This document shows positions 5,642-11,796 of a stretch of DNA of 39,054 nt, piece after piece. This stretch comes from a virus (lineage: Duplodnaviria > Heunggongvirae > Uroviricota > Caudoviricetes), in IMG/VR virus record IMGVR_UViG_2874945390_000007; one strand, given 5' to 3'. Both the position numbers and the translations under genes were made by a program. Each line of letters begins with the position of its first letter. Within the stretch, counting starts at the first letter, position 1. Below the pieces are notes generated by a model that worked only from the letters and a program-made list of their open reading frames with translations, was not told where the DNA came from and searched no databases.

Positions 5642-5845
5642 ATGGCAATTAAGCATTTTCCTGTCGTTCGTTTCACCTCCAGAGGACGTGAATACGAAGT
5701 TGACGAACGCCTGATTACCACAATCGACAAACACCGTTCAGAAAAGGATGCACATCATATCTATCTCACTGACGGCACTTACTTCTGCGCCACCAACGTG
5801 GTGCAGGTGAATCTTATCAGACAGGTACAGGAGTCACGCAGATGA
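5642..5845 (+). CDS. hypothetical early protein
   Basis: ORF 5591..5845; ATG 5642 (MAIKHFPVVRFTSRGREYEVDE...) preceded by AAGGAGG. Confidence 0.5.
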   Translation: MAIKHFPVVRFTSRGREYEVDERLITTIDKHRSEKDAHHIYLTDGTYFCATNVVQVNLIRQVQESRR

Positions 5846-6087
5846 CCATTCTGGACTACATCGCTGCCAATCCGGGTTGTAGCAGTGGAGAAATCGCCGC
5901 AGCACTGAATACACCAACCACAACCATTAATGCGGAGCTACGCCGTCTCTGGCGCAGCGGTTTAGTCACAAGAAAAGAGCGCAAAACAGGCGGTCGCTTT
6001 TCTTATCAGGTAAACCTGATGCCGTTTGGGTGTAGCAACCCACTAACCCAGATGTTCAACCAGCTACTGAGGGAAATCAGAGCATGA
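5842..6087 (+). CDS. small putative winged-helix DNA-binding protein
   Basis: 81-aa ORF MTILDYIAANPGCSSGEIAAALNTPTTTINAELRRLWRSGLVTRKERK...; start overlaps previous stop. Confidence 0.45.
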   Translation: MTILDYIAANPGCSSGEIAAALNTPTTTINAELRRLWRSGLVTRKERKTGGRFSYQVNLMPFGCSNPLTQMFNQLLREIRA

Positions 6088-6600: not shown

Positions 6601-9423
6601 ATGACGGCAGAGTACATCAGGGACTGGCAACAACCGCGCCACGCAGTGGGGCGTGAAGGAACGGGGATCCCCGCTCCTGAATCCGCGCTTTCCTCCTGGC
6701 TGGATGCCCACCGGGCAGAGAACGAGCGCCGCCAGGAAATGGCTGATGCGGCGTTCTCCGCCACGCCACTGGGCAACCTGATTAATAAAAGCCTGGACGC
6801 ACAGGAAAAACAGGACAAAACCATCACACTGGCAGGAGACGCCAGAAAACAGGCACGCGGCGCGGTGGATGAAGCCATGGCCTCGCTGCGCCTGCTGCCG
6901 TCCTATCTGCGCGATCCGCTTATTCGCCACCTCTCCTTCCTGCGCAAAAAACAGGAAGCCGATCGCCGGAAAGGCAAAAAGAGCTGGCAGGCGGAACGCT
7001 ATGCACGCGGAACCCTGCGCAAAATATTCGAACGTCTGGATCGCACTGACGGACACTGGCTGACACCGGGTTATCGCTCCCTTGCCGGACGTGAACGCCT
7101 GGACGATTTGCTTTACCTGCCGCAACTCAACAAACACCAGATACAGACGCTGGCCACCATGACGGCGGCGATGTTCAGCAGCACCTTCGAAAAACTCTGC
7201 GATGGTTTTGGCGCGACTGATGGCGAGCTGACCATGGATGTAACGCTGAAGGCGTATCAGATGCTGGCCCGCATGGCGTTACACTTACACGCCATGCCTC
7301 CGCATTATGACGCACTGACAACAGACAAAGACCGGAGGCACGAACCGGACACAGAACTGCTGCCGGGCGCAATCCTTCGCCTGACCTGTGCGGAATGGTG
7401 GAAACGCAAACTGTGGCTGTTACGTTGCGAGTGGAGAGAAGAACAACTTCGCGCCGCCTGTCTGGTTTCCAGAAAAACATCGCCCTATCTGAGCCAGGAC
7501 GCGTTAAGCGAGTTTCGCGCACAGCGCGAGAAAACACGCGATTTCCTGAAAAGTTTCATGCTGGAAAATGAAGACGGGTTCACGATTGATCTCGAGACGG
7601 TGTATTACGCGGGAGTAAGTAACCCGGTTCACCGTAAGGCAGAAATGATGGCCACCATGAAGGGGCTGGAACTTCTGGCCGAAGCCCGTGGCGACAAAGC
7701 GGTGTTTCTGACTGTCACCTGCCCGTCAAAATACCACGCCACAACGGAGAACGGTCATCCGAATCCCAAATGGAACGGGGCCACAATGCGCGACTCCAGC
7801 GATTACCTGGTTAACACGTTTTTTGCGACGGTCCGCAAAAAACTGAACCGCGACGGCCTGCGCTGGTATGGCATCCGCACGGCGGAGCCTCACCATGACG
7901 GCACCGTGCACTGGCATATGATGGTCTTTGCTCATCCGGAAGAAATCGACACCATTGTGTCCCACACCCGCGATATTGCCATTCAGGAAGATCGTCACGA
8001 GCTGGGCGATGACATAACTCCGCGCTTTAAGGCGGAGTATGTAGACGGCTCAAAAGGCACGCCAACCAGCTACATCGCCACCTACATCGGGAAAAACCTG
8101 GACAGCCGCGCCGTGGATGGCATCGACCCGAAAACGGGCAAGCCACGCGTTGACCACGAAACCGGAAAATCAATGGCCGAGAGCGTGGAACGCGCCATCG
8201 GCTGGGCGCGCCTTCACCGGGTCCGCCAGTTCCAGTTCTTTGGCATCCCCTCCCGCCAGGTATGGCGTGAACTGCGCCGCCTTGCCAGCCAGATGGCACG
8301 CAACCCGGAAGGCCCGCAACGGCTGAAGGATGACGCAATGGATGCGGTTCTTGCCGCCGCTGATGCCGGATGTTTTGCCACCTACATAGAGAAACAGGGC
8401 GGCGTACTTGTTCCACGCAAAGACTACCTGATTCGCACCGCCTACGACCTCGCCGATGAGCTGAACGATTACGGCGAACAGAGCGTACAGATTTACGGGA
8501 TCTGGTCACCACTCATCGGGGAATCCTCCCGTGTGTGCACGCATCCGGATAACTGGAAGCTGGTAAGACGCAAACCGGAAGCGGAAGACAGCGCCCGCGA
8601 AAATGGTTTTGACCTTCAGGGCGGCCCTGCCGCCCCTTGGACTCGTGGCAATAACTGTCCCCGTGTACAGGAAACGGACAACAACGGGACAGAACAGCCG
8701 GAAGAACGGCCAGCACCGTGGCCGCAGCTCCCTGACGGCGTTGATGTGGATGAATGGATGCGCTCACTGAAACGGCACGAACGCCGGGCGCTGATGCGTT
8801 CGCTTCGTGACAAACAGGCAAAAAACAGCAGTGATGAAATGCAGAGCTGGACACAGAGCCGCAAACAGCAGCGGCCTTTGCCTGATAACCACGAATTACT
8901 CGCTAAAGAATGGCGGGAGTCTGCTGAATCTCTCGGCCTGCATATCGGTGAACAACAGATGCAGCACCTGTTACGGGGCGGCAGTCTGTACGTTGACGGC
9001 AGCATCATTGCACCGCAGGGATTTGAAATTGTACGCAAACCGGATACCCGCCCGGACAGCCGAATCACGCAGCTCTGGCAGCGCCTGAGCCGTAATCATG
9101 GCGTAAGCAGCACGGAGATCCGCCATAACCCGGTCGCCAGCTATCTGACACAGCTGGGGGCATCAGACCCTGAAGCCGCCGCACGCCTGGCATCCACACT
9201 TCAGCAGGACCAGAACACCATGAAAACACCCGTTACCGTGCTTTCTGACATGCTGCGCGCCATCCGCGACGCAGAGCACGCACAGAGAATCAGTGAAACC
9301 ACTGAACGCGCCCGCCGCAAAGCAGACCTGCTGCGGGGTGGCCTGACCAGTGGAAACAAAAAACAGACAGAAACGGGACTCACGAATCCCGTAAATGAGC
9401 AAAAAACGCGCAGCGATATATGA
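6601..9423 (+). CDS. A: replication initiation endonuclease (rolling-circle initiator), P2 gpA family
   Basis: 940-aa ORF; motifs ...FLTVTCPSKYHATTENG..., ...EPHHDGTVHWHMMVF..., ...SYIATYIGKNLD... match P2/186 A proteins; ORF is longer than P2 gpA so the true start may be internal. Confidence 0.9.
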   Translation: MTAEYIRDWQQPRHAVGREGTGIPAPESALSSWLDAHRAENERRQEMADAAFSATPLGNLINKSLDAQEKQDKTITLAGDARKQARGAVDEAMASLRLLPSYLRDPLIRHLSFLRKKQEADRRKGKKSWQAERYARGTLRKIFERLDRTDGHWLTPGYRSLAGRERLDDLLYLPQLNKHQIQTLATMTAAMFSSTFEKLCDGFGATDGELTMDVTLKAYQMLARMALHLHAMPPHYDALTTDKDRRHEPDTELLPGAILRLTCAEWWKRKLWLLRCEWREEQLRAACLVSRKTSPYLSQDALSEFRAQREKTRDFLKSFMLENEDGFTIDLETVYYAGVSNPVHRKAEMMATMKGLELLAEARGDKAVFLTVTCPSKYHATTENGHPNPKWNGATMRDSSDYLVNTFFATVRKKLNRDGLRWYGIRTAEPHHDGTVHWHMMVFAHPEEIDTIVSHTRDIAIQEDRHELGDDITPRFKAEYVDGSKGTPTSYIATYIGKNLDSRAVDGIDPKTGKPRVDHETGKSMAESVERAIGWARLHRVRQFQFFGIPSRQVWRELRRLASQMARNPEGPQRLKDDAMDAVLAAADAGCFATYIEKQGGVLVPRKDYLIRTAYDLADELNDYGEQSVQIYGIWSPLIGESSRVCTHPDNWKLVRRKPEAEDSARENGFDLQGGPAAPWTRGNNCPRVQETDNNGTEQPEERPAPWPQLPDGVDVDEWMRSLKRHERRALMRSLRDKQAKNSSDEMQSWTQSRKQQRPLPDNHELLAKEWRESAESLGLHIGEQQMQHLLRGGSLYVDGSIIAPQGFEIVRKPDTRPDSRITQLWQRLSRNHGVSSTEIRHNPVASYLTQLGASDPEAAARLASTLQQDQNTMKTPVTVLSDMLRAIRDAEHAQRISETTERARRKADLLRGGLTSGNKKQTETGLTNPVNEQKTRSDI

Positions 9424-9476
9424 AGCGCGCACAAAACAGGCAAAAACGGGATTTCAGAATCCCGTAAACGATTAAT
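9368..9476. repeat. two copies of a 25-bp palindromic motif bracketing the A stop codon, upstream of parM-like gene
   Basis: aaacgggactcacgaatcccgtaaa (about 9371..9395) and aaacgggatttcagaatcccgtaaa (about 9443..9467); each is an inverted repeat acggga-N-tcccgt. Confidence 0.7.
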
Positions 9477-9499
9477 TAATCAACATAAGGAAAAGCGAC

Positions 9500-10459
9500 A
9501 TGAAAATTTGTATCGACGACGGCTCCACCAACATCAAGCTGGCATGGACTGAGAACGGCGAACGCCGCAACGCCATCAGCCCGAACAGCTTCAAGTCGGA
9601 ATGGTCTGCGCCGTTCGGTGGCATGCAGCCCGCGAACTACATGCTTGATGGCGTGCGCTATGGTTTTGATCCGGTCAGCGATCGCTTTGTCCAGACAACC
9701 GACACGCAATACCAGTACAGCGATGTAAATGTCATTGCCATTCATCACGCGCTGGTCAAATCAGGCATCACGCCACAGGAGGTGGATGTGGTTGTCACCC
9801 TGCCACTGAGCGAGTATTTCGACACAAACGCACAGCCGGACATGGCCAACATCAACCGCAAAAAAGCGAACGTTATGCGCCCGGTGGAGTACCAGAACGG
9901 CGAAGCATTCACTATCCGTAACGTGCGGGTTATGCCTGAATCCATTCCGGCTGGCTTTAAGGCACTGGCTGACATGAGTCCGTTTGAATCCCTGCTGATT
10001 GTGGATTTGGGCGGAACCACGCTGGATGTGGCAAAGGTTCAGGGGCAACTGGCAGGTATCAGCCAGGTGTTTTGCGATCCACACGTAGGCGTTTCTCTGA
10101 TGGCCGATGCCGTACTGTCGGTGATGGCCACTAACGGTATGCGCACCAGTCACCACATCGCCAATACCATTATCGAACATCGCCATGATGAAGCCTGGCT
10201 GCGCCAGCACATCCACAATGACGCGCATTACGCCAGCCTGATGGCGGTTATTCGTGAAAAGGAAGAAACACTGAAACAACGCGTGATCCGCGCGCTGGCG
10301 GGTTTTTCGGGTTACGGGCGGGTGATGGTTGTCGGTGGAGGGGCGGAGATTGTGGCACCCGCTATCCGCGAAGCCTGCGGAGTTAATGCGACTTTCATCG
10401 CGGACGGGGTGCCACAGTTTGCTCTGGTTAATGGGCTGTACGCAATGGACAAGGAGTAA
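9500..10459 (+). CDS. parM: ParM/StbA-like actin-type partition ATPase
   Basis: 319-aa ORF MKICIDDGSTNIKLAW...YSDVNVIAIHHAL...VMPESIPAG...LLIVDLGGTTLD...VMVVGGGAE... aligns along its length with plasmid R1 ParM (StbA); RBS AAGGAAAAG upstream. Confidence 0.85.
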   Translation: MKICIDDGSTNIKLAWTENGERRNAISPNSFKSEWSAPFGGMQPANYMLDGVRYGFDPVSDRFVQTTDTQYQYSDVNVIAIHHALVKSGITPQEVDVVVTLPLSEYFDTNAQPDMANINRKKANVMRPVEYQNGEAFTIRNVRVMPESIPAGFKALADMSPFESLLIVDLGGTTLDVAKVQGQLAGISQVFCDPHVGVSLMADAVLSVMATNGMRTSHHIANTIIEHRHDEAWLRQHIHNDAHYASLMAVIREKEETLKQRVIRALAGFSGYGRVMVVGGGAEIVAPAIREACGVNATFIADGVPQFALVNGLYAMDKE

Positions 10460-10463
10460 ACCA

Positions 10464-10775
10464 ATGACGACACCAACCAGACGGATAAGTTTCTATCTGA
10501 AGCCTGCGGCCGTCAAGAACGAAAGCGAAGCATGCGCCTGGCTGGGCAGCCTTACACCAGAAGCCCGCAAAAGCGGCCAACGCGTGGCTTTTCTGGCCGG
10601 GCTGGCACTTCTGAAAATGAATCCAGCAGAGGCTTACCGACTGGCTGCATGGGCTGACGATGAGGCGTTATCGGTGACACAAACCAGGACAGAACGCCCC
10701 GTGCCACAGCCAGTACCAACCGCACAGATAACCAGTCAGATAGCAGGGAATATCCGGGCATTATTTCCTGAATGA
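10464..10775 (+). CDS. parR: ParR/StbB-like centromere-binding adaptor
   Basis: ORF 10329..10775; ATG 10464 (MTTPTRRISFYLKPAAVKNES...RVAFLAGLALL...) 5 nt after parM stop; N-terminal pattern resembles R1 ParR (RTIAFKLNP...RAALTAGLAL). Confidence 0.65.
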   Translation: MTTPTRRISFYLKPAAVKNESEACAWLGSLTPEARKSGQRVAFLAGLALLKMNPAEAYRLAAWADDEALSVTQTRTERPVPQPVPTAQITSQIAGNIRALFPE

Positions 10776-10835
10776 CGAATTTGACGGCTTTTAATTTTAT
10801 CGGGGTGCACTGTCGCCCCGCACGAGGAAAACACG

Positions 10836-11360
10836 ATGAAAAAATACGAATACATGCTAATGAAAGAAGCACTGCGGGCTGGTCTGGCTCCCTGTCCTGT
10901 ATCCGTAGAAGCTGTTGTTGGGAACACGATTTTCCGAACGCTGCGAAATCGCGTATCCGTGAAGATGGTTCACCAACCACCCAAATCTACCAGCATGATC
11001 TATCTGCCGCTGCCCGAGGCTATCAAACTTATGCGTTCGCTGAAATTTGCGATTTGGATGCAGACACAAATCAACAAAGCGGTGCAAAACACCTTCGTTA
11101 AGAGACTAATACCGGAGCTTGCTGCCAGATGTGCAAAATGTACCAGACCCGCACTTCAATTTGATCTGTCATTGATTCAACAAGCTACGGAGGCAGAACT
11201 GTACCGCCTGTCACCTATCCGTGATGCTCACACGGAAGCATCAGAAATGTTCCGGCTCATGTTTCAATTTAATTTTGCCGTTCGACGCACACGCGTTCAG
11301 GTCAATCGCATGATGCAGGAGCAGGAAGAGTTAACACAGTACAAAGGGGGCAGCCAGTGA
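10836..11360 (+). CDS. hypothetical protein (cargo in variable A-Q region)
   Basis: 174-aa ORF MKKYEYMLMKEALRAGLAPCP...; no recognisable family. Confidence 0.5.
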   Translation: MKKYEYMLMKEALRAGLAPCPVSVEAVVGNTIFRTLRNRVSVKMVHQPPKSTSMIYLPLPEAIKLMRSLKFAIWMQTQINKAVQNTFVKRLIPELAARCAKCTRPALQFDLSLIQQATEAELYRLSPIRDAHTEASEMFRLMFQFNFAVRRTRVQVNRMMQEQEELTQYKGGSQ

Positions 11361-11596
11361 GTAATTCAGCACGACTACAGCTTGGTTTTTCACCGCTATC
11401 AAAAACCATCGTATTGGCAAAAATGCGTGACTTAGGAGACGGAACAAAACGCCGCGTAGGAAATGATCGCGGTCGCGATGTAACCAACGAGGCCGCTCAA
11501 CTCGTTTGGCATCTAGTCATGGCAGAAGGCGGTGAAATTAATTGGGAGCTGGATGATGGTTCTCGTATGATTTTGAGGGCCGAGAAGAGTAAATAG
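11357..11596 (+). CDS. hypothetical small protein
   Basis: 79-aa ORF with GTG start overlapping previous stop. Confidence 0.4.
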   Translation: MSNSARLQLGFSPLSKTIVLAKMRDLGDGTKRRVGNDRGRDVTNEAAQLVWHLVMAEGGEINWELDDGSRMILRAEKSK

Positions 11597-11610
11597 CTCA
11601 AGGGGGATTA

Positions 11611-11796
11611 ATGCTAAATGATGATGAAGAAGAGCTGCTTATGCAGGAATGGTCGCTCGGTGATTATGATAATGGTGAAAATGGGTGCCCGCATTGTGGC
11701 CGTTATCGTTTATGTATCTGCCAGAATGGAAAACACAGATGTGAAAAGTGCAATTGGTCTCCGGAACTTAATGACTACGTGCCGATCGAGTGGTAG
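11611..11796 (+). CDS. small Cys-rich zinc-ribbon protein
   Basis: 61-aa ORF MLNDDEEELLMQEWSLGDYDNGENGCPHCGRYRLCICQNGKHRCEKCNW... with CxxC...CxC...CxxC arrangement. Confidence 0.5.
   Translation: MLNDDEEELLMQEWSLGDYDNGENGCPHCGRYRLCICQNGKHRCEKCNWSPELNDYVPIEW

Follow-up and report, generated by a model that had tools for sequence, protein, structure and literature searches.

Two dyad-symmetric repeats upstream of parM as probable ParR-binding sites of a type II partition cassette in a P88-like prophage

We analysed a 39,054-nucleotide stretch of viral DNA (IMG/VR record IMGVR_UViG_2874945390_000007; referred to as a whole as the window), in which a pair of palindromic repeats, M1 and M2, lies where the replication gene A meets the partition genes parM and parR. 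The window is an integrated prophage of the P2 family, of the P88 / Xuanwuvirus type, its best DNA matches being phage P88 and relatives, and in a 100%-identical copy in an E. coli chromosome the genes run in the order integrase, repressor, early operon, A, parM, parR, cargo, portal and terminase. Gene A (6601..9423, + strand, with a TGA stop at 9421-9423) is a replication endonuclease by its family match (Phage_GPA), and is separated by a spacer of 76 nt from parM (9500..10459, + strand), which encodes an actin-like segregation ATPase of 319 amino acids (Pfam StbA_N, 2.7e-82; ParM C-terminal domain, 1.3e-68; PHROG 'partition protein') with ~52% identity to the ParM of IncF/IncK plasmids. The adjoining parR (10464..10775, + strand, taken from M46 of the listed open reading frame (ORF)) encodes a centromere-binding adaptor of 103 amino acids (Pfam Plasmid_stab_B, PF10784, 5e-23) with an N-terminal strand TRRISFYL and a C-terminal tail NIRALFPE. 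ParR as a single sequence gave no match in the PDB; a profile of its family was required, and this matched 2JD3 (E 5e-14), deposited as 'StbB protein', which we take to be the ParR of pB171. Residues R6, F10, P14, R35, R40, G46, A48 and N96 were invariant in a ParR alignment that included a plasmid protein we recognise as presumably the ParR of plasmid R1. Judged by these similarities parM and parR are genuine R1/pB171-type genes, and the locus presents parts expected of a type II (ParMRC) system, namely an actin-like ParM gene, an adjoining homologous ParR gene and a repeated cis site 5′ of parM. The A-parM junction was found in 1371 of 5426 complete E. coli genomes, at 1531 chromosomal and 2 plasmid places, and the gene A type in 1578, so that most, but not all, genomes with this A type carry the junction.

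The initial annotation had pointed to two 25-bp palindromic motifs on either side of the A stop codon as a candidate centromere or operator. Both are present exactly as quoted, M1 at 9371-9395 within the last codons of A and M2 at 9444-9468 in the A-parM spacer, 73 bp from start to start with 48 bp in between. The repeat unit proved longer than first described, extending over an A-rich 5′ flank to form a 42-nt direct repeat (9357-9398 vs 9430-9471, 81% identity). The first unit (M1, 9357..9398) holds the palindrome ACGGGACTCACGAATCCCGT at 9373-9392, with conserved cores GGGA (9375-9378) and TCCC (9387-9390), and the second (M2, 9430..9471) holds the palindrome ACGGGATTTCAGAATCCCGT at 9446-9465, with cores at 9448-9451 (GGGA) and 9460-9463 (TCCC). 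Their description as inverted repeats holds in full for M2, a perfect 8-bp palindrome with a 4-nt loop ending 31 nt 5′ of the parM ATG, but M1 forms just six perfect pairs on the + strand of the window and has a C:A opposition at 9379/9386. Each dyad consists of the half-sites CGGGAt and aTCCCG, with the centres of GGG and CCC 13 bp apart. No further copy of the motif occurs elsewhere in the prophage, M1 and M2 being the only matches to AAACGGGA-N7-ATCCCGTAAA in the window even when up to three mismatches are allowed (0.02 matches expected by chance; two or more in none of 100 shuffles), and ACGGGA-N(4-12)-TCCCGT likewise occurs just twice, at these two sites. The stretch between the two palindromes (9393..9443) is A-rich (AT skew +0.70), holds the A stop codon and contains a CGCGC...GCGCG inverted repeat at 9407-9429; its length is conserved, keeping the sites 72-73 bp or ~7 helical turns apart, whereas its sequence is not. 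Compensatory change within the central CGCGC...GCGCG repeat was examined and was unsupported. Within gene A a further inverted repeat (8804-8822 / 8877-8895, 79% complementary) has an arm offset of 73 bp like that of M1 and M2 and shares AAACAGGCAAAAA with the M2 flank, which may be chance.

Comparison of related loci indicates that M1 and M2 are inherited together with parMR and independently of gene A. A prophage of strain AR_0013 (L001), whose A protein is 95% identical to that of the window, carries a Dam-methylase/AAA-ATPase cassette in place of parMR and diverges from the window at ~9322; GGGA-N8-TCCC was found nowhere in 6 kb of this prophage, so that the motif is not a standing feature of the 3′ ends of such A genes irrespective of parMR, a case that the initial annotation had raised. 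The replacement cassette in AR_0013 gives A a different C-terminal tail (L001 3121-3227). From ~9322 onwards the A ORF of the window is cassette DNA, its last ~34 codons being cassette-specific. Conversely, the M1-M2-parM-parR block was found 3′ of at least three unrelated A types, and in two blocks lying behind A genes that are 31% and 40% identical to that of the window homology begins at the 5′ edge of the M1 unit. Motif matches in IMG/VR (n=128) comprised 86 distinct upstream segments, and in the best 60 of these the 5′ end of parM follows every one. The A stop codon falls in the M1 loop in Hafnia and 10 nt past M1 in Plesiomonas, and the A 'tail' over M1 is therefore incidental read-through into cassette DNA. 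Codon-position diversity across 9357-9423 does not show, in a small sample, the excess at third positions that is present further upstream in A.

More diverged relatives of parMR were sought by protein searches and contig look-ups, a scan of contigs with ParM having returned three near-identical loci only. P2-like prophages of Plesiomonas, Serratia and Enterobacter and of two Hafnia lineages were found to carry parMR cassettes behind A, and their ParM proteins are 54-63% identical to that of the window. In Hafnia-1, Plesiomonas and Hafnia-2 (ParM 62-63% identical) the DNA 5′ of parM has diverged almost wholly, while two GGG-N10-CCC sites are kept. Counted from the parM ATG, these lie at -125 and -52 in the E. 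coli window (spacing 73 bp), at -124 and -51 in Hafnia-1 (73 bp), at -131 and -59 in Plesiomonas (72 bp) and at -128 and -55 in Hafnia-2 (73 bp); two or more such sites arose by chance in at most 0.2% of shuffles in each lineage. An alignment of six lineages shows invariant islands at GGGA...CCC of M1, at CGGG...CC of M2, at a downstream ATTAAT and at the ribosome-binding region. The potential to form a hairpin has been lost in Plesiomonas and Hafnia-2, in which pairing is reduced to 3-4 bp of GGG/CCC around a 10-nt loop; at these sites a repeat finder gave no inverted repeat and folding was mostly no better than that of shuffled sequence. Retention of the cores and their spacing without the stem fits a site that protein binds in DNA and speaks against RNA hairpins or minus-strand terminators. 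A third GGG-N10-CCC, at 10803 on the 3′ side of parR, is specific to one allele of the downstream cargo and was placed outside the conserved set.

The type of motif appears from these alignments to track the type of DNA-reading strand in ParR. The GGG-N10-CCC pair is present in all five lineages whose ParR strand is TRR[I/V]SFYL. The ParRs of Serratia and Enterobacter have NRKISFYL, and a 19-20-nt inverted repeat, GGAACGAAATAGAAAAAT (AGGAACGAAATAGAAAAAT / ATTTTTCTATTTCGTTCCT), lies 5′ of parM instead, 28 nt separating its arms. In this Serratia/Enterobacter lineage the element forms a perfect inverted repeat of 19 nt (L138 2882-2947, a Serratia fonticola prophage), and an extra copy of the ATTTTTCTATTT arm lies just past parR, so that candidate binding sites may flank the par operon. 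TRRISFYL is essentially invariant over ~170 P88-like phages, two records having single-residue variants. At least two parR alleles, ~52% identical, circulate with the same first 18 residues and the same C-terminal NI..LFPE, and across these alleles ParM is 99% identical and the upstream DNA ~99%, with two positions differing and M2 unchanged. Constant termini and a constant parM beside such divergent alleles indicate that the central part of ParR can diverge freely or is subject to diversifying selection. In ribbon-helix-helix proteins alternate strand residues read the major groove; by analogy T5, R7, S9 and Y11 of ParR would face the groove, and an arginine reading the G-rich core is plausible.

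We consider it probable, on this comparative evidence, that M1 and M2 are ParR-binding cis sites and form the parC-type centromere of a type II cassette carried by P88-like prophages in the variable region behind gene A. As such they would most likely be the cis element that one expects of an already known type of system, not a new mechanism. A number of observations weigh against this interpretation. All characterised ParRs bind direct repeats (PMC9426499), and the prophage offers four half-sites only, spaced by 13 bp with dyad symmetry where R1, pSK41 and pB171 have direct iterons of 10-11 bp. Among 62 distinct P88-like upstream regions the diversity of the palindrome arms (pi 0.035-0.073) is close to that of parM third codon positions (0.049), a set in which divergence is too small to show constraint, and ~1/4 of P88-like phages have a CCC-to-CCT change in M2. 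The correlation between strand and motif comes from few, phylogenetically nested lineages. The AlphaFold monomer of ParR is of low confidence (predicted local distance difference test, pLDDT, 58), and the N-terminal strand is absent from the model. Two rearranged elements keep parMR without the full pair of sites, a remnant in EC7518 (L002) lacking both and another (L033) having M2 only. Finally, a search for sigma-70-like promoters found none on either strand between 9000 and 11000. In the remnant in the E. coli EC7518 chromosome the early-operon DUF4761 gene runs straight into parM; both palindromes and the replication genes are deleted, and the parM and parR ORFs are intact.

The promoter search bears on the second half of the initial proposal. 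The comparative evidence favours a centromere at M1 and M2, but their designation as the operator of an autoregulated par promoter is unsupported. Inspection of the region around M2 and ATTAAT for -35/-10 pairs gave nothing consistent across lineages, and the six-lineage alignment contained no conserved promoter element between or after the sites, although the cassette may have a weak or unusual promoter. No + strand terminator was found between A and parM, and co-transcription with the early operon is therefore at least as likely as expression from a promoter of the cassette; it is the simplest reading of how parMR is expressed. Between M2 and the parM Shine-Dalgarno lies a perfect 12-bp palindrome, GATTAATTAATC (9470..9481), whose ATTAAT core does not vary among the six deep lineages and which might serve as a -10-like element or as a further site for protein binding. 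In 6 of the 62 distinct P88-like upstream regions it is changed symmetrically at two positions to GGTTAATTAACC; the individual changes are 9471 A>G, present in 8 regions, and 9480 T>C, present in 6, with at least one region having the first change alone.

A number of other explanations for the repeats were weighed against ParR binding. Binding by a different protein, such as the C repressor, a Cox-like protein, the winged-helix protein encoded at 5842-6087 or a host factor controlling the cassette, would suit the form of the sites, since dyad-symmetric sites of 20 bp are what helix-turn-helix dimers typically bind, the phage has genes for several small DNA-binding proteins, and direct repeats rather than dyads are what characterised ParRs bind (PMC9426499). 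The sites however follow parMR behind A genes of 31-40% identity and into the phages of Hafnia and Plesiomonas, and apart from ParR no recognised DNA-binding protein moves with them; moreover the motif is found nowhere else in the 39-kb window, the regulatory region included, and its type tracks that of the ParR strand, which together leave a non-ParR protein unlikely. A function in phage replication, as part of the origin or as rolling-circle hairpins of the A protein, is suggested by position, as the P2 origin lies within the A coding region and M1 lies inside the A ORF. A P2-type origin should nevertheless be present wherever its cognate A protein is, and the AR_0013 prophage has a 95%-identical A protein without either site, the sites belonging to the DNA of the cassette, so that we give this explanation hardly any credence.

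The palindromes might alternatively act in RNA, as tandem minus-strand Rho-independent terminators or the 3′ ends of a small antisense RNA over the parM ribosome-binding site, keeping antisense transcription out of gene A. A terminator scan picked out both sites on the - strand only, each as an 8-pair stem with a 4-nt loop and followed by the T-rich tails TTTTTGCCTGT and TTCTGTCTGT, and the 42-nt unit takes in exactly that T-rich tail. The C:A opposition of M1 on the + strand becomes G.U on the - strand, as do several common M1 variants, and the folding z-scores are ~ -2.5. An intrinsic terminator is expected to show a conserved stem and a U tract downstream of a gene, a combination that M1 and M2 lack: the stems are gone in Plesiomonas and Hafnia-2 although the GGG/CCC cores and their spacing are kept, and no - strand promoter or gene is directed at the sites. 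The direction of wobble is mixed, transition variants being as often compatible with pairing on the + strand as on the - strand; the common M2 variants G1:T20 and G3:T18 (GCGGG...CCCGT and ...ATCCTGT), for example, pair on the + strand only. An Rfam search of 9200-9700 with a permissive E-value gave chance-level matches only. We thus hold a terminator or antisense function to be very unlikely, though some stray antisense transcription may still end incidentally at the E. coli copies. It is just as improbable that the repeats are a non-functional by-product, either of local duplication or of a recombination joint that scarred the 5′ boundary of a mobile cassette. That boundary does map at the M1 unit, another GC-rich hairpin occurs at the 3′ junction past parR, and arm diversity within the P88 clade is near-neutral, but neutral DNA would not hold two GGG-N10-CCC cores at fixed positions, 72-73 bp apart, amid surroundings that are no longer recognisable.

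The dyads, being 73 bp or ~7 helical turns apart, would lie on the same face of the DNA. If M1 and M2 are bound by ParR, ribbon-helix-helix ParR dimers would insert the TRRISFYL strand into the major groove at the four half-sites and assemble one nucleoprotein complex spanning both dyads, and this complex could then capture growing ParM filaments through the conserved C-terminal N-x-x-x-LFP tail. Filament growth would move or separate copies of the circular phage genome after infection or excision. In such a scheme parMR would probably be expressed by read-through from the early operon, from A into parM, with no promoter of its own, and M2, by virtue of its position 31 nt 5′ of the ATG, could let ParR dampen expression. 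We tentatively propose, as a possibility that falls well short of the likelihood of ParR binding itself, that this minimal centromere attaches excised or freshly injected circular genomes of P2-family phages to ParM filaments, with parMR expressed within the early lytic operon instead of from an autoregulated promoter and serving the non-integrated phase of the phage. Were this so, parMR would serve the positioning, replication or inheritance of viral genomes, not classical plasmid maintenance, and would do so in a prophage family present in ~1/4 of complete E. coli genomes, including O157:H7 and O104:H4 strains. The literature searched yielded no description of a P88-like parMR centromere or of its function. 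Why a phage that integrates should retain segregation machinery of the plasmid type is a question raised by the locus, whose two short dyads provide a defined target for binding and plasmid-incompatibility assays.

The region downstream of the cassette varies among P88-like phages. Between parR and the cos/portal region (10836-11796) the window contains three small + strand cargo ORFs, none of them functionally annotated, which comprise one of 174 amino acids without a family, one assigned to DUF7446 and a zinc-ribbon-like ORF of 61 amino acids. A GC-rich hairpin, CGGGGTGCACTGTCGCCCCG, lies at 10801-10820, 28 nt past the parR stop, with a T tract on neither strand. Other P88-like phages have a different hairpin, CAGGGCG-N4/5-CGCCCTG, at the same place, at the junction with the variable cargo genes.

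Among partition systems already described, parC lies directly upstream of parM in R1, pSK41 and pB171 (PMC5016525; PMC9426499), the position occupied by M1 and M2. The prophage locus shares with R1 the order cis site-parM-parR, a homologous ParR and a ParM that is ~47-52% identical to those of plasmids, as well as a site that adjoins parM, is split into two blocks and is A-rich with CCC-core repeats. The R1 parC iterons, which we recovered for comparison, are A-rich 11-mers with a CCC core (AAAACCCAAAA) arranged in two blocks, and the prophage half-site is AATCCCGTAAA, in a stretch with an AT skew of +0.70. The two differ in that a defined promoter is flanked in plasmid R1 by ten direct iterons of 11 bp (5+5), whereas the integrating phage has two dyads, made up of four half-sites at 13-bp spacing, and lacks a recognisable promoter; an array of the R1/pSK41 style, with four to ten tandem iterons of 10-11 or 20 bp, was not found upstream of the prophage parM. 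The chain in 2JD3, taken to be the ParR of pB171, is the closest solved homologue (profile E 5e-14), and pB171 ParR is reported to bind just two repeats upstream of parM (PMC9426499), a number that the prophage matches, although those of pB171 parC1 are 10-bp direct repeats and those of the prophage are dyad-symmetric and 73 bp apart.

Two systems from integrated elements provide further comparisons. The srpMRC locus of SXT/R391 is a type II locus on a normally integrated element, in which just four short repeats, in both direct and inverted orientation, make up the centromere 5′ of the actin-like gene and expression is driven externally (PMC4489591). SrpR and ParR share no detectable homology, whereas the prophage ParR is a clear Plasmid_stab_B protein, and the host element and its regulation also differ. 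The AlpAC/alpS system of the Corynebacterium prophage CGP3 is expressed early after induction and supports the replication or positioning of phage DNA (PMC4446434), so that there is already a case of an integrated prophage applying an actin-like system to its own DNA after induction, although its proteins are unrelated in sequence, its alpS site consists of 24 short repeats (TTAAnnG) and its host is Gram-positive. By analogy with the proposals made for CGP3 AlpAC and SXT SrpMRC, the prophage parMR could likewise act in the non-integrated phase. Set beside these systems, the prophage parMR is an uncharacterised and very widespread phage-borne member whose two-dyad architecture is somewhat unusual, and a ParR of the R1/pB171 family may use dyad-symmetric sites, not direct iterons, which would widen the range of known parC architectures.

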